Source of the DNA: a virus | Lineage: Duplodnaviria; Heunggongvirae; Uroviricota; Caudoviricetes | IMG/VR virus record: IMGVR_UViG_3300045988_009865 | Span: 1 to 64,000 of that record | Length of the DNA: 64,000 nucleotides | Direction: 5' to 3' (one strand) | In this document: positions 2,505 to 29,239 of the stretch, one piece after another | How positions within the stretch are numbered: the stretch's first letter is position 1 | How the letters are laid out: each line of letters opens with the position of its first letter | Notes under the pieces: model-generated | Databases searched by the model: none | Told to the model about the DNA's origin: nothing | Seen by the model: the letters and a program-made list of their open reading frames with translations, nothing else | Program-made: the position numbers and the translations under genes

Positions 2505-3920
2505 ATGAGCGAGTTATTCAAACATGCGCACCTTCATGCAGGTCGAACTGAAAATGGTGCTGTAAACCATACTTCATCAATGTCTGCTCTGGTAGACTTT
2601 TACAAAGCCGCTGGCTCAAGCCGTAGCAATGTAGAAATCTTACCAGACCTGTTCTACAAAGCTTTGCGTGAGGATGTTGATGTTGCAGTTCGTATTTTAC
2701 TGCATATGCGAGATGTACGAGAAGGCATGGGTGAGCGTAAAGCTTTCCGAACTGTTTTACTTCAAGCGATTGAAGATAAGGTTTTAGAGCCTACACAGGT
2801 TCTTCGTATTATGGATAAGATTGCAGAACTTGGTCGTTTTGATGACTTCAAAATCTTCGTAGGTACTCGTTTTGAGACAGATGCCTTCAAACATTTAGAA
2901 GCAGCATTACTAGACCCTGCAACAGCAGGTTTAGCAGCTAAGTGGTTACCACGAGTAAAACCACGCCACAAACAGTTTGTAAAACGTTTCTGTAAGTTTG
3001 CAAACTTAAGCGAGAAAGAGTATCGCACACTGTTATCTGCACTGTCTGATACGGTTGAGCAAAAAATCTCTGCGAATGAGTTTGGTAAGATTGACTACAG
3101 CAAGATTCCTTCACTCGCTGCTGCACGTTACCAAAAACTCTTTAACCGTAAAGATGGAGAACGTTACAAAGCTTACATCGAATCACTATCAAAGGGTGAG
3201 GCTAAGATTAACGCTGGTGCTGTTTACCCATATGATGTGATTAAATCTATTAAGTATGGTAATGCAGATGTTGCTAATGAGCAGTGGAAAGCACTTCCAA
3301 ACTGGATGGCAGAAGGTGAAAACATCTTGTGTATGACTGATGTTTCAAGCTCAATGTCTTGGGTAAATCTTGGCTCAATTACTGCCCTTGATATTGGTGT
3401 ATCACTTGCCTTGTATGTAGCAGAACGCAATACAGGTTGCTTTAAAGATGAGTTAATGGTCTATTCAACAAACCCTCATTTCATTGAACTGAGTGGTGAT
3501 TTACGAAACCGTCATCGTCAGGTAATGCGTCATGTTGAATATGGTTCAACTAACTTACAAGCAGCTTTTGACCGTATTCTTGAGATAGGTAAGAGAAACA
3601 ACTTGACTCAGAAAGATATGCCAAGTAAGCTTATTATCTTCTCTGATATGGAGTTTAATCAGGTTGATGGTGCAAATGGTCGTACAAACTTTGAAGCAAT
3701 TCAGAGTAAGTACAAAAAAGCTGGATACGAAATGCCACAACTGGTATTCTGGTACTTAGCAAACCGTAATGGTACTTGCGAAGTATCCGTTAAGGATAAC
3801 GGTGTAGCAATGGTATCAGGGTTCTCTCCAGCCACTTTAAAAGCTCTGCTTGGTGGTGAGAAGTTTGACCCAATCAGCGTAATGCTCAAAGCAGTAATGA
3901 TTGACCGTTATATCTGGTAA
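2505..3920 (+). CDS. von Willebrand factor A (MIDAS) domain protein
   Basis: 471 aa; DxSxS MIDAS motif in MTDVSSSMSW; GAGAG RBS; N-terminal domain not recognised. Confidence 0.6.
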   Translation: MSELFKHAHLHAGRTENGAVNHTSSMSALVDFYKAAGSSRSNVEILPDLFYKALREDVDVAVRILLHMRDVREGMGERKAFRTVLLQAIEDKVLEPTQVLRIMDKIAELGRFDDFKIFVGTRFETDAFKHLEAALLDPATAGLAAKWLPRVKPRHKQFVKRFCKFANLSEKEYRTLLSALSDTVEQKISANEFGKIDYSKIPSLAAARYQKLFNRKDGERYKAYIESLSKGEAKINAGAVYPYDVIKSIKYGNADVANEQWKALPNWMAEGENILCMTDVSSSMSWVNLGSITALDIGVSLALYVAERNTGCFKDELMVYSTNPHFIELSGDLRNRHRQVMRHVEYGSTNLQAAFDRILEIGKRNNLTQKDMPSKLIIFSDMEFNQVDGANGRTNFEAIQSKYKKAGYEMPQLVFWYLANRNGTCEVSVKDNGVAMVSGFSPATLKALLGGEKFDPISVMLKAVMIDRYIW

Positions 3921-3938
3921 AAAGTTTTAAAAAGGGTA

Positions 3939-3967
3939 TTGACAATGTGTTTAATACCCTTTAATAT
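3939..3967 (+). promoter_or_regulatory. sigma70-like promoter (TTGACA, 17-nt spacer, TAATAT)
   Basis: -35 3939..3944, -10 3962..3967; 7-bp inverted repeat GGGTATT/AATACCC overlaps -35; TTTTAAAAAGGG tract upstream. Confidence 0.55.
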
Positions 3968-4028
3968 GTTCTACATAGAAACGAAATGAGAGCTTTTCTA
4001 AGATACTGAAAAATATTTTAAAAAGTTC

Positions 4029-4058
4029 TTGACAACCACTAAAAAATAATGTTAAAGT
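4029..4058 (+). promoter_or_regulatory. sigma70-like promoter for the tRNA cluster (TTGACA, 18-nt spacer, TAAAGT)
   Basis: -35 4029..4034; inverted repeat AACCACT/AGTGGTT overlaps spacer and -10; first tRNA begins about 27 nt downstream. Confidence 0.5.
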
Positions 4059-4084
4059 GGTTACATAGAGTTTGAAAAGTTTAT

Positions 4085-4161
4085 CTCTGTTTAGCTCAGC
4101 TTGGTAGAGCGTTCCGTTTGGGGCGGTAAGGCCGGAGGTTCAAGTCCTCCAACAGAGACCA
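4085..4161 (+). tRNA. tRNA-Pro (anticodon TGG)
   Basis: 7-bp acceptor CTCTGTT/AACAGAG, D-arm TAGCTCAGCTTGGTAGAGC, loop TTTGGGG, T-arm GGAGGTTCAAGTCCTCC, encoded CCA. Confidence 0.75.
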
Positions 4162-4168
4162 AATTAAT

Positions 4169-4246
4169 GTTCCAGTAGACAAAACGGTAAAGTCACCACT
4201 CTTTCAAAGTGGATATTTGAGGGTTCAAATCCCTTCTGGAACGCCA
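4169..4246 (+). tRNA. tRNA-Glu (anticodon TTC)
   Basis: acceptor GTTCCAG/CTGGAAC, anticodon arm CCACT-CTTTCAA-AGTGG, T-loop TTCAAAT, CCA. Confidence 0.8.
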
Positions 4247-4251
4247 GTTTT

Positions 4252-4327
4252 GACAGAAGACCAATTACAGCAAACTTAATCTTATTCATCTGACACGAAA
4301 TCGGACAAAGAAGAGATTTGGTCTGGT
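4252..4327 (+). repeat. covarying stem element copy 1 (CAGAAGACCAA ... TTGGTCTGG)
   Basis: AGACCAA 4258..4264 pairs with TTGGTCT 4318..4324; conserved ACAGCAA after 5' arm. Confidence 0.6.
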
Positions 4328-4337
4328 CATTAAGAAT

Positions 4338-4414
4338 TGCGGGTATAGAGAAAGGGCGTCTCACATGTCTCATTAGCATGGTATCGGCAGGTTCGACTCC
4401 TGCACCCGCCTCCA
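4338..4414 (+). tRNA. tRNA with CAT anticodon (Met or Ile2); register of acceptor ambiguous
   Basis: D-stem GAGA/TCTC, anticodon arm CATGT-CTCATTA-GCATG, T-arm GCAGGTTCGACTCCTGC, CCA; 1-72 mismatch or 6-bp acceptor. Confidence 0.5.
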
Positions 4415-4420
4415 ATTTTG

Positions 4421-4480
4421 CAGAAGACCGTATGCAGCAATAAACTACTTTTTGCGGATAAAAGAAAAAACACGGTCTGG
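4421..4480 (+). repeat. covarying stem element copy 2 (CAGAAGACCGT ... ACGGTCTGG)
   Basis: AGACCGT 4425..4431 pairs with ACGGTCT 4472..4478. Confidence 0.6.
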
Positions 4481-4491
4481 CAATGTATTAA

Positions 4492-4568
4492 GGTTAGGAA
4501 GCACATAAGGTATGTGCGGTCGCCTGTTAAGCGAATGGCACAGGGTTCGAATCCCTGACTAACCGCCA
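4492..4568 (+). tRNA. tRNA-Asn (anticodon GTT)
   Basis: acceptor GGTTAGG/ACTAACC (6/7), loop CTGTTAA, T-arm CAGGGTTCGAATCCCTG, CCA. Confidence 0.75.
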
Positions 4569-4577
4569 AATTTAAAT

Positions 4578-4665
4578 GTGTCGTTATCCCGTAGATGGTA
4601 GCGGTGGGGACTGTAAATCCCTTGTCATTGAGACTCGGTAGGTTCGACTCCTACACGGCACACCA
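4578..4665 (+). tRNA. tRNA-Tyr (anticodon GTA), long variable arm
   Basis: acceptor GTGTCGT/ACGGCAC, anticodon arm GGGGA-CTGTAAA-TCCCT, 15-nt variable arm, T-arm GTAGGTTCGACTCCTAC, CCA. Confidence 0.65.
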
Positions 4666-4671
4666 AATAAA

Positions 4672-4749
4672 GGTTATGTAGTTTAATCTGGTTAAAATAC
4701 TCCCCTGTCACGGGAGATGATGAGGGTTCAAATCCCTTCGTAACCGCCA
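4672..4749 (+). tRNA. tRNA-Asp (anticodon GTC)
   Basis: acceptor GGTTATG/CGTAACC, anticodon arm CTCCC-CTGTCAC-GGGAG, T-loop TTCAAAT, CCA. Confidence 0.8.
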
Positions 4750-4835
4750 AATTATAATAAGTATTTCAAGATGATGTTTTGAGAGGGCTATTTAGCCCCT
4801 CCCTTAAAGAGTTCTTACGAGTATTCTTTAAAGGA

Positions 4836-4910
4836 GCAGAAGACCAAATACAGCAAGTTACTTAAAATTTCAAGCCAATTTAATTTTGAAAAATTTAAAA
4901 CTTGGTCTGG
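4836..4910 (+). repeat. covarying stem element copy 3 (CAGAAGACCAA ... TTGGTCTGG) enclosing palindrome TTTCAAG..TTTTGAAA
   Basis: AGACCAA 4840..4846 pairs with TTGGTCT 4902..4908. Confidence 0.6.
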
Positions 4911-4923
4911 CTCAACAAATTTA

Positions 4924-5055
4924 CAGAAGACCGTTTACAGCAAAAACTAAACAATCTATTTCTCCGGTAAAGAAAAGGCGAAGGTTCGATTCCTTCACTC
5001 GGCAGATGTCGAGTTGGTGTAATGGTAGCACTTAAGATGATAAACAACGGTCTGG
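4924..5055 (+). repeat. covarying stem element copy 4 (CAGAAGACCGTT ... AACGGTCTGG) enclosing the permuted tRNA-like locus
   Basis: AGACCGTT 4928..4935 pairs with AACGGTCT 5046..5053 (8 bp). Confidence 0.6.
4959..5032 (+). pseudogene. circularly permuted tRNA-Thr(GGT)-like locus: 3' half, GAT linker, 5' half
   Basis: 3' half 4959..5004: anticodon arm TTTCT-CCGGTAA-AGAAA, T-arm GAAGG-TTCGATT-CCTTC, acceptor 3' ACTCGGC, A73; 5' half 5008..5032: acceptor 5' GTCGAGT (7/7 with one G.U), D-arm GTGT-AATGGTA-GCAC; C at position 33. Confidence 0.45.
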
Positions 5056-5062
5056 TAATTGT

Positions 5063-5194
5063 CTTTGTAGATAAGTTATTAAGCTTACCTGTGAGTATGC
5101 GACCACAAAGGGTGAAAGGGTAAATTCTAGATTTAAACCCAACAAGGCACATCGCTACAGACCTTAAGCAAGTCTGGGTAGCTTATCTACAAAG
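5063..5194 (+). ncRNA. long imperfect hairpin element (possible small structured RNA)
   Basis: 13-bp inverted repeat CTTTGTAGATAAG 5063..5075 / CTTATCTACAAAG 5182..5194 closing about 105 nt; no tRNA fold. Confidence 0.3.
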
Positions 5195-5204
5195 ATAATT
5201 TAAT

Positions 5205-5280
5205 GGAAGTGTAGCAGAATGGTGATGCGGCAGACTTTTAATCTGACAGGCGATGGGTTCGAATCCCTCCACTTCTACCA
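5205..5280 (+). tRNA. tRNA-Lys (anticodon TTT)
   Basis: acceptor GGAAGTG/CACTTCT (G1.U72), loop CTTTTAA, T-loop TTCGAAT, CCA. Confidence 0.7.
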
Positions 5281-5284
5281 ATAT

Positions 5285-5361
5285 GGTTCAGTCGCAGATA
5301 AGGTAATGCAGGGGTCTCATAAGCTCTATGAATGTGGGTTCGATTCCCATCTGAACCTCCA
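5285..5361 (+). tRNA. tRNA with CAT anticodon (Met or Ile2)
   Basis: perfect acceptor GGTTCAG/CTGAACC, loop CTCATAA, T-arm GTGGGTTCGATTCCCAT, CCA; anticodon stem has wobble pairs. Confidence 0.6.
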
Positions 5362-5362
5362 A

Positions 5363-5438
5363 GCTGGTATAGTTAAGAAGGTTATAACACTCCCCTGATA
5401 AGGGAACATCGGTGGTTCGATTCCACCTACCAGTACCA
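5363..5438 (+). tRNA. tRNA-Ile (anticodon GAT)
   Basis: acceptor GCTGGTA/TACCAGT, loop CTGATAA, T-arm GGTGGTTCGATTCCACC, CCA. Confidence 0.75.
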
Positions 5439-5453
5439 ATTTCAATAAAGTTG

Positions 5454-5482
5454 TTGACATTGAGATGCGACTACTTTATAGT
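5454..5482 (+). promoter_or_regulatory. sigma70-like promoter (TTGACA, 17-nt spacer, TATAGT)
   Basis: -35 5454..5459, -10 5477..5482; directly downstream of tRNA-Ile; drives region holding the tag-like mini-ORF and tRNA-like element. Confidence 0.55.
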
Positions 5483-5531
5483 AACCTTAGTTTTCGTTGC
5501 GTAGCGTCTATTTTGCAAATTTAAAATAAAT

Positions 5532-5567
5532 GCAAACGACAATGTTTTTCTGGCAGTAGCTTGATAG
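5532..5567 (+). other. tmRNA-tag-like mini reading frame GCA AAC GAC AAT GTT TTT CTG GCA GTA GCT TGA TAG (ANDNVFLAVA, double stop)
   Basis: starts with GCA and encodes an AND-initial, Ala-rich decapeptide with tandem stops, resembling tmRNA resume/tag frames; no ATG or RBS in frame. Confidence 0.3.
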
Positions 5568-5715
5568 GCTAAACACCAGTGAGGTCTTCCAATCCCTCAT
5601 CAAAGAATTTGGCGTACTAGCCCACGGTATGATTAATAAGGTGGGCAACATTCTAAAGGGTATCCCTTATGGGGCTTGGCTTAAATGCAATGAGTACCCT
5701 TTAAAATGTTAATTA

Positions 5716-5797
5716 CGGGGCGTATCTCAGCGGTCTTCTAAACCGCCGTTAACCGAGTAAGTGGAGTATGCGGGTTCGAGTCCTGCCGCCTCGACCA
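5716..5797 (+). ncRNA. aberrant tRNA-like structure: Ala-type acceptor (G3.U70, A73, CCA), Arg-type loop (CTTCTAA), no canonical D-arm, 23-nt extra segment
   Basis: acceptor CGGGGCG/CGCCTCG 7/7 with G3.U70; perfect hairpin GCGGT-CTTCTAA-ACCGC; T-arm GCGGG-TTCGAGT-CCTGC; only 7 nt between acceptor and anticodon-like stem. Confidence 0.5.
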
Positions 5798-5813
5798 ATT
5801 TTGGATGAAATCA

Positions 5814-6160
5814 TGAAAACTTGTATTAGGTGCAAACTTAGCAAGGATGAAAGTGATTTCTACATGAAAGATGGTAGGAGAACTCATTCATACTGTAAAA
5901 AGTGTGTTAATGAGCAAACCATAGAAAGACAAAGAGCACTTAAACTTTCAGCTATTGAGTACAAAGGTGGGATTTGTCATGATTGTGGTAAAAGGTATCA
6001 TCCAGCAGTGTATGACTTCCATCATTTGAATCCTTCAGAGAAAGATTTTAACATTGGTCATAGAAAAAGTCTTAAGTTCTCTCAGGAGCTAAAAGATGAA
6101 CTTGACAAATGTGTTTTGCTATGTTCAAATTGCCATAGGGTAAGACATGCAAAGTATTAG
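5814..6160 (+). CDS. HNH homing endonuclease
   Basis: CxxC...CxxC zinc motifs and YDFHHLNPSEKDFNIG...LLCSNCHR HNH core; ATG at 5814 preferred over track start 5768, which lies inside the tRNA-like element. Confidence 0.7.
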
Positions 6161-6297
6161 TTAGCAGATTGCTTAGACGACCTTATCGGGTCTCCGTGTA
6201 AGGAGGTGGTCTGTATCTCATGTTTTCCAGAACATGTAAATAATCTGAGAAGGGGCTTTACAGTGTTGCGAAAATACGGTAAGCTTCGAATTATAGT

Positions 6298-6380
6298 GTG
6301 GGACGATGTTAAGACTCTAAGGCATGAGCAACGGCCTCCAAAACCGTTTCAAAGGGGTTCAACTCCTCCGTCCCATGCCA
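6298..6380 (+). tRNA. tRNA-Trp (anticodon CCA)-like with about 7 extra nt in the D region
   Basis: acceptor GTGGGAC/GTCCCAT (G1.U72), loop CTCCAAA, T-arm AGGGGTTCAACTCCTCC, CCA; D region 26 nt rather than about 19. Confidence 0.45.
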
Positions 6381-6393
6381 AAGTCTTATTAGG

Positions 6394-6481
6394 GGTAGGT
6401 AGCGGCTAATGGCAGCCAAACAGTCTTGAAAACTGTTGCCACTGTAGAGATACGGTGAGGGTTCGACTCCTTTACTTACCG
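6394..6481 (+). tRNA. tRNA-Ser (anticodon TGA), long variable arm
   Basis: acceptor GGTAGGT/ACTTACC, anticodon arm ACAGT-CTTGAAA-ACTGT, about 20-nt variable arm, T-loop TTCGACT. Confidence 0.65.
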
Positions 6482-6637
6482 CCTAATAAGATTTAAAGCC
6501 AAGCTTCATTCGGATGTTGCTTTGGTATCCCTCGTGTATTGTCGTACACGCACAGTAAAGCACCTAGTAGGTGTCACGGAGAAGAGATAATATCAAGCTC
6601 TCCAAAGGTTCTAGTCACCGGATTAAACAAGACTATG

Positions 6638-6662
6638 CAAAGACCAATTTAGGTCTTTTTAG
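6638..6662 (+). terminator. hairpin AAAGACCAATTTAGGTCTTTTT (minimal AGACCAA/GGTCT unit plus T-run)
   Basis: stem AGACC/GGTCT followed by TTTTT; same AGACCAA word as stem elements 1 and 3. Confidence 0.4.
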
Positions 6663-6739
6663 AGGGCTTCTAAGGTTATTACAGCTTGTTGTGGAACCTT
6701 GTTGCTTAGGTTCTTAGAAGTTCTCTAAAAAGATTTAAT

Positions 6740-6817
6740 GGGAGATTGACGGTAATTGGTAAACCTACCATCCTTAGAAGTTGGTGTTTGAGGGTTCGAA
6801 TCCCTTGTCTCCTACCA
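6740..6817 (+). tRNA. tRNA with anticodon TAG (Leu-type anticodon) but short variable arm
   Basis: acceptor GGGAGAT/GTCTCCT, loop CTTAGAA, T-arm GAGGGTTCGAATCCCTT, A73, CCA. Confidence 0.5.
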
Positions 6818-6824
6818 AATTAAT

Positions 6825-6900
6825 GCAGGTGTAGCAAAATGGTTATGCGGCTGACTCTTAATCAGTAAGACGATGGGTTCAATTCCCTCCACCTGTACCA
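6825..6900 (+). tRNA. tRNA-Lys (anticodon CTT)
   Basis: acceptor GCAGGTG/CACCTGT, anticodon arm GCTGA-CTCTTAA-TCAGT, T-loop TTCAATT, CCA; body resembles the Lys(TTT) gene. Confidence 0.65.
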
Positions 6901-6906
6901 AACATT

Positions 6907-6982
6907 GGGGATGTAGTTTACATGGTTAAAACATAAGTTTTGCAAACTTAAGTACAGGGTTCAATTCCCTGCTTCTCCACCA
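6907..6982 (+). tRNA. tRNA-Ala (anticodon TGC)
   Basis: acceptor GGGGATG with G3.U70, anticodon arm TAAGT-TTTGCAA-ACTTA, T-arm CAGGGTTCAATTCCCTG, A73, CCA. Confidence 0.75.
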
Positions 6983-6988
6983 ATTAGT

Positions 6989-7063
6989 GCATCCATAGTT
7001 TAAACGGGAAAATTACAGTCTTCCAAACTGAGGTTGAGGGTTCGATTCCCTCTGGATGCTCCA
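6989..7063 (+). tRNA. tRNA-Gly (anticodon TCC)
   Basis: perfect acceptor GCATCCA/TGGATGC, loop CTTCCAA, T-loop TTCGATT, CCA. Confidence 0.8.
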
Positions 7064-7070
7064 AATTAAT

Positions 7071-7147
7071 GCTGCTTTCGTATAATTGGCTATTACACAT
7101 CCCTTGTAAGGATGGAAATGCAGGTTCGAGTCCTGTGAGCAGCACCA
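7071..7147 (+). tRNA. tRNA-Thr (anticodon TGT)
   Basis: acceptor GCTGCTT/GAGCAGC, anticodon arm CATCC-CTTGTAA-GGATG, T-loop TTCGAGT, CCA. Confidence 0.8.
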
Positions 7148-7242
7148 ATTCAGAGGTCAAGTGAAAGACCGCTGGTGTCAACTGAAGACCGTAACAAATT
7201 CCACGGAGTTGAGTTAGCGGCACAACTTCAGACCTCTTTCAT

Positions 7243-7317
7243 ACTCGCTTAGTTTATATGGTAAAACACCACCCTTACAAGATGAAGAAAAAGGTTCAAG
7301 TCCTTTAGTGAGTACCA
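7243..7317 (+). tRNA. tRNA, probably Val (anticodon TAC); anticodon stem weak
   Basis: acceptor ACTCGCT/AGTGAGT, D-stem GTTT/AAAC, loop CTTACAA, T-arm AAAGGTTCAAGTCCTTT, CCA. Confidence 0.5.
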
Positions 7318-7318
7318 T

Positions 7319-7396
7319 GTTCCAGTATCCCAATTGGCAGAGGATGCAAGCTCAAACCTTGTATTAGTGACGGTTCGAATCCGTCTTGGAACACCA
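7319..7396 (+). tRNA. tRNA with anticodon CAA (Leu-type anticodon) but short variable arm
   Basis: acceptor GTTCCAG/TTGGAAC, D-loop CAATTGGCAGA, anticodon arm GCAAG-CTCAAAC-CTTGT, T-arm GACGGTTCGAATCCGTC, A73, CCA. Confidence 0.55.
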
Positions 7397-7412
7397 ATTT
7401 TAGGAGAACACT

Positions 7413-7520
7413 ATGAGTGATAAGTCAATTGCAAAAAAGTTTATAGCGTCATTCAAAAATAGGCGTAAAAACAAAGATTGTGAAAAACTGTATGGTGTTC
7501 TTGTAGGTAAGCAGGATTAG
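7413..7520 (+). CDS. small hypothetical protein (35 aa) inside the tRNA cluster
   Basis: AGGAG RBS 7 nt upstream of ATG 7413; MSDKSIAKKFIASFKNRRKNKDCEKLYGVLVGKQD; stop overlaps 5' end of tRNA-Arg. Confidence 0.25.
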   Translation: MSDKSIAKKFIASFKNRRKNKDCEKLYGVLVGKQD

Positions 7521-7586
7521 TTCAAATGGATAGAGCAACAGTCTACGAAGCTGTTAATAGGGGTTCGAATCCCTTATCCTGCGCCA
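7511..7586 (+). tRNA. tRNA-Arg (anticodon ACG)
   Basis: perfect acceptor GCAGGAT/ATCCTGC, D-arm GTTCAAATGGATAGAGC, loop CTACGAA, T-loop TTCGAAT, CCA. Confidence 0.8.
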
Positions 7587-7605
7587 ATTTAAAGAGGCTA
7601 TTTAG

Positions 7606-8163
7606 ATGAGATATTTGAAGTATGCTTCATGGATTTTCTTAGCTTTGTTAGAGCCATTTGCAGCAATCTTAGCAGTTATCTTAGCACCTTTCGTAGTTCC
7701 ATTTTACAGTGAGAAGAAAGGACACTTACCTTTTGGATTCAGATGGATGGAGACATATGATAACCCAATTGATGGTGATAAAGGTCATGTCGAACGATGG
7801 GCTAAGATTAGAAAGGTTGGTAAGCTTGGTGTCTATTTGCAGAGAGTTGGATGGCTCTGGAGAAACAAAGCTTATAACTTCTCTTACCATGTGTTAGGAA
7901 GAGATGTAAAAGATGTTACTAAGTGGAAAGGTAATATCAACGTAAGTTCTGACCCTGAAGATAATCAGACAGGTTATCTCCTGATGTGGAACAGTAACGC
8001 TTGGGGATTATTCGCCTTTATCCCATCAATTAAAATCTTCGGTAAACAATTCTACTGGAGAATTTATGTTGGATGGAAACTTAAAAGTGTTGTCCCAGAA
8101 GAAAGAGCATTCTCAAGGGAAAGAGTTATGTTGGCATTCTTTATTCATCCACTAAGAAAGTAA
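7606..8163 (+). CDS. hypothetical membrane protein embedded in the tRNA cluster
   Basis: 185 aa; hydrophobic N-terminus; AAAGAGG RBS. Confidence 0.55.
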   Translation: MRYLKYASWIFLALLEPFAAILAVILAPFVVPFYSEKKGHLPFGFRWMETYDNPIDGDKGHVERWAKIRKVGKLGVYLQRVGWLWRNKAYNFSYHVLGRDVKDVTKWKGNINVSSDPEDNQTGYLLMWNSNAWGLFAFIPSIKIFGKQFYWRIYVGWKLKSVVPEERAFSRERVMLAFFIHPLRK

Positions 8164-8171
8164 AGATTTAA

Positions 8172-8247
8172 AGGGGATTAGTTTACAAGGTTAAAACCTC
8201 GGTCTTTGAAATCGAAGAAGTTGGTTCAATTCCAACATCCCCCGCCA
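8172..8247 (+). tRNA. tRNA-Gln (anticodon TTG)
   Basis: acceptor AGGGGAT/ATCCCCC (weak 1-72 pair), anticodon arm TCGGT-CTTTGAA-ATCGA, T-arm GTTGGTTCAATTCCAAC, CCA. Confidence 0.7.
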
Positions 8248-8249
8248 AT

Positions 8250-8328
8250 GCTCCATTACTCCAATTGGCAGAGAGGCCAGACTTAAAATCTGTGTTATGT
8301 ATCGGTTCGAATCCGATATGGAGTACCA
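8250..8328 (+). tRNA. tRNA with anticodon TAA (Leu-type anticodon) but short variable arm
   Basis: acceptor GCTCCAT/ATGGAGT, D-loop CAATTGGCAGA, anticodon arm CCAGA-CTTAAAA-TCTGT, T-arm ATCGGTTCGAATCCGAT, A73, CCA. Confidence 0.55.
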
Positions 8329-8333
8329 AATTT

Positions 8334-8409
8334 AGCGGTATAGCATAACTGGCAATGCAGCAGTCTCTGAAGCTGTCTTATTAAGGTTCAAATCCTTATG
8401 CCGCTGCCA
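8334..8409 (+). tRNA. tRNA-Gln (anticodon CTG)
   Basis: acceptor AGCGGTA/TGCCGCT, D-stem GCAT/ATGC, loop CTCTGAA, T-arm TAAGGTTCAAATCCTTA, CCA. Confidence 0.65.
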
Positions 8410-8440
8410 CTTCTAAGGGTTCTTACGAGAGTCCTTAAAT

Positions 8441-8516
8441 GTGGCCTTATCATAAAAGGTAATGACCCATGCTGTGAACATGGTCTATACGGGTTCAAAT
8501 CCCGTAGGTCACCCCA
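8441..8516 (+). tRNA. tRNA-His (anticodon GTG)
   Basis: acceptor GTGGCCT/AGGTCAC, perfect anticodon arm CCATG-CTGTGAA-CATGG, T-arm ACGGGTTCAAATCCCGT, CCA. Confidence 0.8.
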
Positions 8517-8521
8517 ATTTA

Positions 8522-8598
8522 TAGTCCAAGTAGCTTATATGGTTAAAGCGCGTGTCTGAAAAACATGAGAAGAGGGTTCAAATCCCACTGGACTACCA
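8522..8598 (+). tRNA. tRNA-Phe (anticodon GAA)
   Basis: acceptor TAGTCCA/TGGACTA 7/7, anticodon arm CGTGT-CTGAAAA-ACATG, T-loop TTCAAAT. Confidence 0.7.
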
Positions 8599-8614
8599 AT
8601 TTCAAAGGTGCTTA

Positions 8615-9349
8615 ATGAAAGAGATGACAGAACAAGGTAAGGAGATTTTTAATCTCTTAAAAACCGGTAGAGGGTTTTCTAATCCCCTTATTACTGGTGC
8701 AGCAGTTCTCGGTGGAACCGTAGCTGCCTCTACATCACTTGTAAGCTCTATTAGCTCTGTAACAGACCCTACAATGAAGGATAAGCTCATTGCTGCTGGA
8801 CTTACAACAGTTCTGCTTAGCAGCTTTACAACGAGTCTGACAAGCACTACATCAACCACTAAAACACTGACAGATTACGGTCAAAAGTCTATTGATGAGT
8901 TTTCATCACGTATGCAGGTAGCAAAAGGCTACTCCAATGTTATGGGTGCAGCAGGAGAGCAAGTTGGTTGTACACCATTTAGTGGTATTATGGGTGTTGC
9001 TACAGAGTATGGTCAAAAAGCTATTGACACAATTAACAGTGCACTAGACGGTGTTAATGATGTATTAAGTGACTTACAAGATGCTATTGATAAAGGTCTT
9101 GATACTGTTTCTGATTTAGCTAACCAAGCTGTTAGTAAGATTAATGAAGGTATCTCGAAGATTACAGCTTATGCAGATGAAGTTGTGCAGATGATTGAAG
9201 AAGAAGCTGCCCTTATTGCAGAGTACCTTAAAACGAATATCAATGGGTTCTTAGCAGGTATCTTACCAGACTGGTTTGATGATGCTTGTAAAACTGGTGT
9301 GATTGACACTATTGCAACACCAGAAATGAAGAACGCATTACAGAAATAA
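8615..9349 (+). CDS. hypothetical protein (Ser/Thr-rich N-terminal half)
   Basis: ATG at 8615 preferred over track GTG start 8552, which overlaps tRNA-Phe; AAAGGTG RBS. Confidence 0.5.
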   Translation: MKEMTEQGKEIFNLLKTGRGFSNPLITGAAVLGGTVAASTSLVSSISSVTDPTMKDKLIAAGLTTVLLSSFTTSLTSTTSTTKTLTDYGQKSIDEFSSRMQVAKGYSNVMGAAGEQVGCTPFSGIMGVATEYGQKAIDTINSALDGVNDVLSDLQDAIDKGLDTVSDLANQAVSKINEGISKITAYADEVVQMIEEEAALIAEYLKTNINGFLAGILPDWFDDACKTGVIDTIATPEMKNALQK

Positions 9350-9350
9350 T

Positions 9351-9443
9351 GGAAGATTAACCCTAAAAGGTAAGGGAGCAGTTTGCTAAACTGCCAGTAG
9401 CTGAGAAATCGGTGTACCAGTTCAAGTCTGGTATCTTCCTCCA
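9351..9443 (+). tRNA. tRNA-Ser (anticodon GCT), long variable arm
   Basis: perfect acceptor GGAAGAT/ATCTTCC, anticodon arm GCAGT-TTGCTAA-ACTGC, long variable arm, T-arm ACCAGTTCAAGTCTGGT, CCA. Confidence 0.75.
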
Positions 9444-9447
9444 ATTT

Positions 9448-9523
9448 GAATCCGTGACAGAAATGGCTATGTGCCTGTCTGCAAAACAGGTTTATAAGGG
9501 TTCGAGTCCCTTCGGATTCTCCA
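9448..9523 (+). tRNA. tRNA-Cys (anticodon GCA)
   Basis: perfect acceptor GAATCCG/CGGATTC, anticodon arm CCTGT-CTGCAAA-ACAGG, T-arm AAGGGTTCGAGTCCCTT, CCA. Confidence 0.8.
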
Positions 9524-9560
9524 AGTTATTTTACTCTCTCTCAATTAAAATAATAATAAT

Positions 9561-9620
9561 GCCCTGCTATGAGTATTCTTCCTTTCGCTACCGAAGAGTA
9601 TTTTTAGACAGGGCTTTTTT
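9561..9620 (+). terminator. rho-independent terminator closing the tRNA cluster
   Basis: stem GCCCTG 9561..9566 / CAGGGC 9609..9614 with internal CTTC/GAAG sub-stem, then TTTTTT. Confidence 0.6.
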
Positions 9621-9685
9621 ACAGAGCTATACTTTATAAGAAGCCTTATACAGTATGTCTCTGACGTACATTGTGGTTTCTCCTT

Positions 9686-9709
9686 GACGGTCTCTGTACC
9701 GTCTTTTTT
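9686..9709 (+). terminator. hairpin GACGGT-CTCTGT-ACCGTC followed by TTTTTT
   Basis: 6-bp perfect stem plus T-run upstream of structural module. Confidence 0.5.

Positions 9710-21223: not shown

Positions 21224-29239
<8,016 letters not shown>

Follow-up and report, generated by a model that had tools for sequence, protein, structure and literature searches.

Four copies of a structured RNA element in a 64,000-nucleotide (nt) stretch of a Caudoviricetes phage genome (IMG/VR record IMGVR_UViG_3300045988_009865, positions 1–64,000; hereafter the window) are probably Y-RNA-like small non-coding partners of a divergent Ro60-like ring protein (DUF2828 plus vWA). The protein is encoded just upstream, by the open reading frame (ORF) 2505–3920, and the elements lie within the tRNA gene cluster that follows it.

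The pattern AGAAGACC-N3-5-RCAGCAA has exactly four matches in the window (at 4255, 4422, 4838 and 4925), all on the plus strand, and none in 100 dinucleotide-preserving shuffles of the window. Downstream of every match we find a complementary NNGGTCTGG, the complement ending in GGTCTGG, and no further copy is present in the window outside 4251–5058. The elements begin 331 nt past the stop codon of the Ro60-fold gene and share its strand. Elements 1 and 2 start 3–4 nt after a tRNA CCA end, and elements 3 and 4 are located in the long gap before tRNA-Lys. The original prediction, made from the sequence of the window, had distributed the four copies over four separate spacers; copies 3 and 4 in fact share a single 455-nt gap between tRNA-Asp and tRNA-Lys.

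4251–4329, plus strand: element 1, 79 nt, between tRNA-Glu and tRNA-Met; outer helix 4251–4254/4326–4329, AGA 4255–4257, inner helix 4258–4264/4318–4324, CAGCAA 4268–4273, unpaired G 4325
4418–4483, plus strand: element 2, 66 nt, between tRNA-Met and tRNA-Asn; outer helix 4418–4421/4480–4483, inner helix 4425–4431/4472–4478, CAGCAA 4435–4440, G 4479
4834–4913, plus strand: element 3, 80 nt, tRNA-Asp/tRNA-Lys gap; outer helix 4834–4837/4910–4913, inner helix 4841–4847/4902–4908, CAGCAA 4851–4856, G 4909
4921–5058, plus strand: element 4, 138 nt, YrlA-like, tRNA-Asp/tRNA-Lys gap; outer helix 4921–4924/5055–5058, inner helix 4928–4935/5046–5053, CAGCAA 4938–4943

Single-sequence folds return a common design in all four copies, with an outer helix of 4 base pairs (bp), an internal loop formed by AGA (5′) and G (3′), an inner helix, and a single-stranded NNN-CAGCAA. 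The inner helix (AGACCNN/NNGGUCU) has 7 bp, or 8 bp in copy 4, and encloses 53, 40, 54 and 111 nt in copies 1–4; the original prediction had been a 7–8-bp stem closing 40–110 nt. Covariation is seen at the two pairs nearest the loop, which read AA/UU in copies 1 and 3 and GU/AC in copies 2 and 4. The outer helix is different in each copy and always paired (UGAC/GUCA, UUGC/GCAA, GAGC/GCUC and UUAC/GUAA in copies 1–4, respectively). When three variants from close relatives are added to the four copies, each of the 77 cells (11 pairs in seven sequences) holds a standard pair, and at five of the pairs both partners vary. None of 500 shuffles reached the covariation score, and sliding the register lowers pairing in the same seven sequences to 19–47%. 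A four-copy element with a covarying stem, as first proposed, is thus confirmed, and the covariation extends to homologous loci. The outer helix, the tRNA-like domain of element 4 (see below) and the link to the gene at 2505–3920 had no place in that proposal, and its "minimal version" at 6638–6662 proves to be a plain 7-bp hairpin (AAAGACC-AAUUU-GGUCUUU, then UU; folding z = −1.2) that lacks CAGCAA, the AGA/G loop and the unpaired G and falls outside the family.

The loop interiors of the short copies are plain and A/U-rich. A search of 4247–5060 against Rfam 15 returned no match at E ≤ 1. Rfam searches of related loci recovered tRNAs only (five loci, gathering threshold) and left the elements unmatched (four further phage loci, E ≤ 0.1). 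We regard the four copies as genuine small RNAs with a defined structure, belonging to a family not described before.

Element 4 encloses a circularly permuted tRNA-like domain, the arms of which are identical in the minimum free energy (MFE) and centroid folds:

4959–4975, plus strand: V-like small hairpin (predicted fold)
4980–4996, plus strand: T-arm, GAAGG-UUCGAUU-CCUUC
4997–5014, plus strand: acceptor stem of 7 bp, 3′ strand first, with an AGAU closing loop (predicted fold)
5016–5032, plus strand: D-arm, GUGU-AAUGGUA-GCAC

The T-then-D order was verified by script. The anticodon arm is absent, and the element's own terminal stem takes its place. Element 4 is not a canonical tRNA: ARAGORN does not call it, and no Rfam family, the tRNA model included, matches at E ≤ 1. 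Modules composed of T-arm, closed acceptor stem and D-arm were detected by script in the window, in L010 (two copies), in L058 and in Mycobacterium phage Rumpelstiltskin, and by eye at 7422 in L052 (L-numbers denote fetched loci that carry homologues of ORF 2505–3920). The T-arm pattern is flagged in 14 long family members, at least one of which (L028) looks spurious; the permuted T-then-D order is seen in seven of the eight T-arm-flagged members where a D-arm was also detected.

One element in L052 departs from this arrangement. The interior of 5734–5833 is a tRNA that is almost whole and has its arms in the usual order, with a score of 52.9 bits in the Rfam tRNA model and a UGU triplet in the anticodon loop; the tRNA acceptor stem is partly supplanted by the stem of the element. 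The L052 element at 7422 encodes CCA after the discriminator position. In public records the elements of the window are unannotated, or element 4 is overlain by an antisense "hypothetical protein." This ORF of 85 amino acids (aa) on the minus strand (4895–5152), antisense to element 4, is a hypothetical protein in relatives (e.g. AYO145A_047) and is probably spurious.

The gene upstream of the elements codes for the proposed partner of the RNAs:

2505–3920, plus strand: Ro60-like protein gene, 471 aa, DUF2828 N-terminal helical domain followed by vWA/DUF7788

Pfam assigns DUF2828 (E = 2.9e-29) and DUF7788 (2.4e-43) to the protein, together with a weak VWA_2 match, and it belongs to PHROG 850, "RNA-binding protein" (8e-184). 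We obtained a confident AlphaFold (AF2) model using 36 homologues (predicted local distance difference test, pLDDT, 85.9; predicted template-modeling score, pTM, 0.85). When this model was compared with the PDB in Foldseek, the top 12 matches were all Ro60/Rsr/TROVE proteins aligned over the full length (E 4e-8 to 3e-6, template-modeling score up to 0.68, 515–555 aligned columns, probability 1.00). These include Xenopus Ro60, human Ro60, Deinococcus Rsr and the Ro60 of Thermus phage phiLo, whose structures 9KOP and 9L5Y are among the best matches. The matches following the Ro60 set are isolated vWA domains and are four orders of magnitude weaker. In the predicted structure the protein has the overall Ro60 fold, with a helical-repeat domain and a C-terminal vWA domain. 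PDB searches by sequence gave no significant match, and a profile search finds Ro60 at E 0.5–0.8 in the vWA part only. Sequence methods miss the kinship with Ro60, and fold comparison alone shows it. Asp-279, Ser-281, Ser-283, Thr-349 and Asp-381 are invariant in the family alignment, and would fit an intact MIDAS (metal ion-dependent adhesion site). Homologues are present in 710 phage records, where they are annotated as "hypothetical," "RNA-binding protein" or "Ro-like." Our literature search on DUF2828 turned up plant and tardigrade papers only.

The RNA signature (a variable 7-bp stem, 3 nt, CAGCAA, and the 3′ strand followed by G) accompanies this gene in other genomes. We compiled 80 viral contigs with gene homologues, most of them 39–48% identical (set 1), and 80 loci drawn from assembled genomes of bacteria and archaea, for the most part metagenome bins, which were retrieved by protein profile after the motif had been fixed (set 2). 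R1, a covariance model of "mini" elements trimmed to 39 columns, gave an E value of 0.17 on element 1 and noise elsewhere. Because this model could not span the natural inserts, we adopted explicit motif-plus-pairing scans with strand and shuffle controls. The sequence-only motif was [AT]G[AG]N7CAGCAA, and pairing was defined as a perfect 7-mer complement 25–230 nt downstream.

In set 1, we counted 131 motif sites on the gene strand and 11 on the opposite strand, compared with ∼14 per strand expected at uniform base composition. A 7/7 complement follows downstream at 101 of the 131 gene-strand sites (22% in shuffles); 94 of these 101 paired sites are found within 2.5 kilobases (kb) of the gene and none inside it, and 59 of 80 loci contain at least one paired element. 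When both the stem and the trailing G are required, 109 of 174 gene-strand sites in set 1 comply versus 0 of 22 on the opposite strand (shuffles, 6%). The corresponding figures for set 2 are 53 of 96 and 0 of 21, with 30 loci positive. The signature is thus strand-locked beside the gene in hundreds of phages, and the elements are therefore probably the RNA partners of the protein. Exact-motif matches in L073 were rejected as chance, as they fall within a coding region that in our own reading of the sequence resembles a ClpP-type protease.

At L006, where the protein is 48% identical, four tRNA-cluster spacers share the design with different helices, among them AGAGCAC/GTGCTCT, AGAGCAG/CTGCTCT (with a T-arm inside) and AGGACAC/GTGTCCT. 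Tandem elements adjoin the gene in every isolated phage we opened:

Listeria phage cka8: three elements upstream of the gene
Listeria phage CKA15: the same three elements as in cka8, between CKA15_056 and CKA15_055
Mycobacterium phage Rumpelstiltskin: three elements downstream of the gene, one with a T-then-D tRNA-like domain; gene annotated "Ro-like RNA binding protein"
Campylobacter phage CPX: two elements, between the tRNA cluster and the gene
Staphylococcus phage 6ec: three elements downstream of the gene

The family comprises 97 unique elements, of which 64 are short hairpins (32–80 nt, mode ∼58 nt) and 33 are longer (up to 225 nt). The 7-bp helix is represented by 44 distinct sequences; both partners vary at six of its seven pairs, and the second pair is always G-C. 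The family consensus reads A-A-[A/U]G[G/A]N[U]NN - N-U-A - CAGCAA ... A-rich ... NN[A]N[Y]C[U/A] - G. In Felix-like phages with a 97–100% identical protein, the interiors of elements 1–3 have been replaced or resized, with the ends and CAGCAA unchanged, which is the pattern expected if the ends are the functional part.

At four loci, a minimal hairpin of 32–37 nt with the full signature ends 1–15 nt ahead of the Ro60-like gene's ribosome-binding site:

5954–5986 in L007: minimal hairpin
1764–1795 in L013: minimal hairpin
2859–2890 in L020: minimal hairpin
5907–5943 in L061: minimal hairpin

Since the hairpins abut the ribosome-binding site of the gene, they fit a protein-binding site. Their sequence and position suggest that the protein binds the minimal hairpin before its own ribosome-binding site and may autoregulate its translation. 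One could thus regard the stem and CAGCAA throughout as an autoregulatory operator, a cis binding site that controls translation or stability of its own or neighboring transcripts with no stable free RNA. We consider this unlikely: the elements of the window lie downstream of the gene and behind two further candidate promoters, no minimal hairpin precedes ORF 2505–3920, and elements come in tandem sets of 2–5, many of them with tRNA-like modules that an operator would not need. The operator function complements a role as Y-RNA-like partners and does not exclude it.

The original prediction had also listed RNA-processing sites, small stable RNAs and miniature mobile elements as options, of which small stable RNAs come nearest to our findings. 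Processing or punctuation signals of a polycistronic tRNA transcript, which RNase III or RNase E would cleave without any partner protein, would account for elements placed in tRNA spacers a few nt after a CCA end, and the tRNA cluster begins right after the gene in several other phages. However, the element is present at loci without a tRNA gene within 6 kb (L009, L011, L016, L022), and beside the gene in Staphylococcus phage 6ec and in Rumpelstiltskin, the fetched region of which has no annotated tRNA. Moreover, most tRNA spacers of the window have no element, and RNase III sites do not feature a single-stranded CAGCAA that never varies, nor a tRNA-like insert. The element follows the gene and not the tRNAs, and we therefore find this explanation unsupported and quite improbable. 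Miniature mobile or recombination elements spreading between spacers at the DNA level would be compatible with several copies that have conserved ends and variable interiors, with copy numbers that differ among close relatives (four copies in L001, a fifth motif at 10600 in L003) and with a homing endonuclease gene in the cluster, but we give them almost no credence, because the copies are tied to one strand and to the neighborhood of one gene (in neither set is there an opposite-strand stem-plus-G site), their helix arms covary, including G-U pairs, in a way meaningful only in plus-strand RNA, and target-site duplications were not seen by eye, with no dedicated test run.

A number of observations weigh against Y-RNA-like partners of a Ro60-like protein. 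The examined flanks contain no element at 21 of 80 viral and 50 of 80 genome loci; most of the Clostridia-type genome loci are element-negative. The pairing counts in alignment A2 are inflated, because pairing itself was used for selection; the strand and shuffle controls are therefore the real test. ORF 2505–3920 is not a TROVE protein by sequence, with Pfam reporting DUF2828 and DUF7788 and no TROVE. The Y RNA motif (GNCGAAN0-1G/CGAA in bacteria, GGUCCGA in animals) is missing, with no CGAA at the corresponding place. We rejected the outer helix as a family-wide feature: the longest flank helix averages 4.85 bp versus 4.52 ± 0.13 in flank-swapped controls, and flank helices of at least 5 bp are no commoner than in these controls. 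It is real in the Felix-like copies and some others only. Finally, gp130 of the Felixounavirus Bas63, a Ro60-like protein encoded directly upstream of tRNAs, counters the Ppl defense system on its own, when supplied from a plasmid or T7 (PhageMaP preprint, PMC11482910), and at least its anti-Ppl activity therefore needs no phage RNAs.

We still favor the Y-RNA-like partner model, and envisage the following mechanism. Transcription of the elements together with the first tRNAs would start from two candidate promoters, both located 3′ of the Ro60-like gene:

3939–3967, plus strand: candidate sigma-70-like promoter 1, TTGACA-17-TAATAT, 10/12 consensus
4029–4058, plus strand: candidate sigma-70-like promoter 2, TTGACA-18-TAAAGT, 10/12 consensus

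Both sites are consensus matches only, and promoter-like sites in the region are no more numerous than in shuffles. RNase P and 3′-end trimming of the flanking tRNAs would then free RNAs of ∼66–138 nt with paired ends. These ends would form the outer helix, the AGA/G loop and the 7-bp inner helix seen by covariation. The start of the inner helix ([A/U]-G-[G/A]), the single-stranded NUA-CAGCAA and the unpaired G, which are conserved, would provide a constant recognition surface for the Ro60-like protein. The interior would be a swappable module, and the tRNA-like domain of element 4 could present the particle to tRNA-recognizing enzymes or nucleases, as thought for YrlA. By analogy with Ro60-Y RNA-PNPase particles, the RNAs may serve the ring as gates or tethers. 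A role in RNA surveillance or counter-defense during infection is probable for the particle. The apparent orthologue in Bas63 counters Ppl.

We lean, with somewhat less assurance, towards a more general proposal, in which these loci represent a second class of Ro60-Y RNA particle, distinct in sequence and much more frequent in phages than its canonical counterpart. The 7-bp stem and CAGCAA would be a universal handle by which a DUF2828-vWA ring recognizes interchangeable modules, be they plain loops, permuted mimics of tRNA or entire tRNA-like bodies, and the handle would double as an operator on the mRNA of the protein. The particle would belong to a tRNA and counter-defense toolkit of the phage. 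On the same cautious footing, the particle would occur in Felix O1, P100/A511, KVP40-like, Campylobacter, staphylococcal and cluster-L mycobacterial phages.

The window belongs to a FelixO1-like phage, and its positions 3900–9700 are 95–97% identical to phages of this kind such as Escherichia phage KEP1 and Salmonella phage FelixO1. The tRNA cluster spans 4085–9523 on the plus strand and contains 25 tRNA genes as called by ARAGORN. Several other features of this region stood out:

5056–5204, plus strand: 149 nt directly 3′ of element 4, predicted to form a multi-branched RNA with a 24-bp closing stem
5454–5715, plus strand: best promoter match of the region (TTGACA-17-TATAGT, 11/12), then ∼230 non-coding nt before the odd tRNA at 5716
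5716–5794 and 6300–6374, plus strand: two aberrant tRNA-like sequences, uncalled by ARAGORN
5813–6160, plus strand: small HNH-type endonuclease ORF within the tRNA cluster (Pfam HNH, weak, E 0.0085)
7146–7243, plus strand: 98-nt spacer between tRNA-Thr and tRNA-Val, predicted to form a long hairpin whose closing stem is AGAGGUC/GACCUCU (z = −3.1)

The fold of 5056–5204 (MFE −48.3 kcal/mol, z = −6.0) is matched in stability by none of 200 shuffles, and the segment has no Rfam match and no annotation. The segment 5454–5715 matches a permuted tmRNA model below threshold (27.6 bits, gathering score 47). In one of the aberrant tRNA-like sequences, which scores 23 bits with the Rfam tRNA-Sec model, a 9-nt loop contains a CCA (Trp) triplet and the D region is odd; Trp is otherwise absent among the 25 called tRNAs. 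The other scores 31.7 bits with the Rfam tRNA model. Relatives of the ORF at 5813–6160 are annotated as HNH homing endonucleases. The start of the stem at 7146–7243 resembles that of the CAGCAA-stem family, without CAGCAA and without the trailing G.

At least 710 sequenced phage genomes, among them those of several model and therapeutic phages, contain a homologue of the Ro60-like gene. Two papers have asked where the Y RNAs of this protein lie, and our analysis provides candidates with coordinates, a simple signature and a minimal 32-nt version, so that binding, structure and genetics become testable at once. It also flags spurious ORFs drawn over these RNAs in public records, such as the 85-aa antisense ORF over element 4. 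Should our interpretation hold, the Ro60-Y RNA principle would extend to a clade of proteins whose link to Ro60 escapes sequence searches, with tRNA mimicry arising repeatedly on a common candidate protein-binding handle.

The first of the two papers describes Bas63 gp130, and its authors supposed some annotated tRNA genes to be Y RNAs (PMC11482910). Position and fold suggest that ORF 2505–3920 is orthologous to gp130. The second reports that Listeria phage CKA15_055, a Ro60-like homologue, is present in virions and guesses at Y RNAs nearby, pointing to hyper-abundant transcripts as candidates (PMC12282133). Both proteins seemingly belong to the same family as ORF 2505–3920, being Ro60-like and encoded beside tRNA genes, and neither paper names the RNAs. 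We considered whether the hyper-abundant non-coding transcript of CKA15 (26,236–26,727) corresponds to our elements, and rejected this: the strongest transcript is a ROOL RNA, and the elements lie ∼700 nt further downstream. This ROOL RNA (RF03087; its 86.7 bits, at E 3e-16, fall slightly short of the gathering score) is located ∼650 nt upstream of the Ro60-like gene in cka8 and CKA15, and coincides with the "CKA15_059–061" region, for which up to 67% of phage transcripts were reported (PMC12282133):

2427–2978 in L082 (cka8): ROOL RNA
∼1487–1978 in L086 (CKA15, record positions 26,236–26,727): ROOL RNA

The elements resemble the YrlA/YrlB Y RNAs of bacteria and phages, which are bound by Ro60 (Rsr), in sharing the strand of a Ro60-fold gene no more than a few kb away, the protein here being Ro60-like by fold only, and in having several paralogues per locus. 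As in YrlA/YrlB, the 5′ and 3′ ends pair into a stem beside a short conserved motif, with the RNA ends of our elements placed by prediction; a terminal stem with an internal loop is present in the predicted folds, and both of its helices covary. YrlA is built from a T-arm, a closed acceptor stem and a D-arm, and the 5′ and 3′ ends of the RNA are paired (Chen et al. 2014, PMC4201824). The same three parts can be present in at least one RNA of a locus here, as in element 4 (4980–5032) and, in the same order, in L010, L058 and L083. The acceptor stem of element 4 has 7 bp, as in the YrlA of M. smegmatis, an RNase P substrate (PMC4201824). Unlike YrlA/YrlB, our elements have NUA-CAGCAA just 3′ of the 5′ strand and an unpaired G after the 3′ strand in place of GNCGAAN0-1G, and most family members are bare hairpins of ∼58 nt. 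Further differences are that the partner is by sequence a DUF2828 and not a TROVE protein, and that the elements of the window are embedded in a tRNA operon and match no Rfam model.

A close parallel is Thermus phage phiLo with its Ro60 and Yrl1/Yrl2 (PMC12135203), where a Ro60-fold protein is likewise encoded next to phage stem-bulge-stem RNAs. The phiLo protein is a recognizable Ro60 homologue and its RNAs contain CGAA, and RNA binding and PNPase recruitment have been demonstrated for phiLo, whereas we propose them here by analogy. With its own motif, no Rfam 15 model and no RNA identified in either of the two papers, the family appears to be new, although some elements of cluster-L mycobacteriophages may stand in the supplement of Chen et al. 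2014. Its motif is distinct from the GNCGAAN0-1G/CGAA of known Y RNAs.

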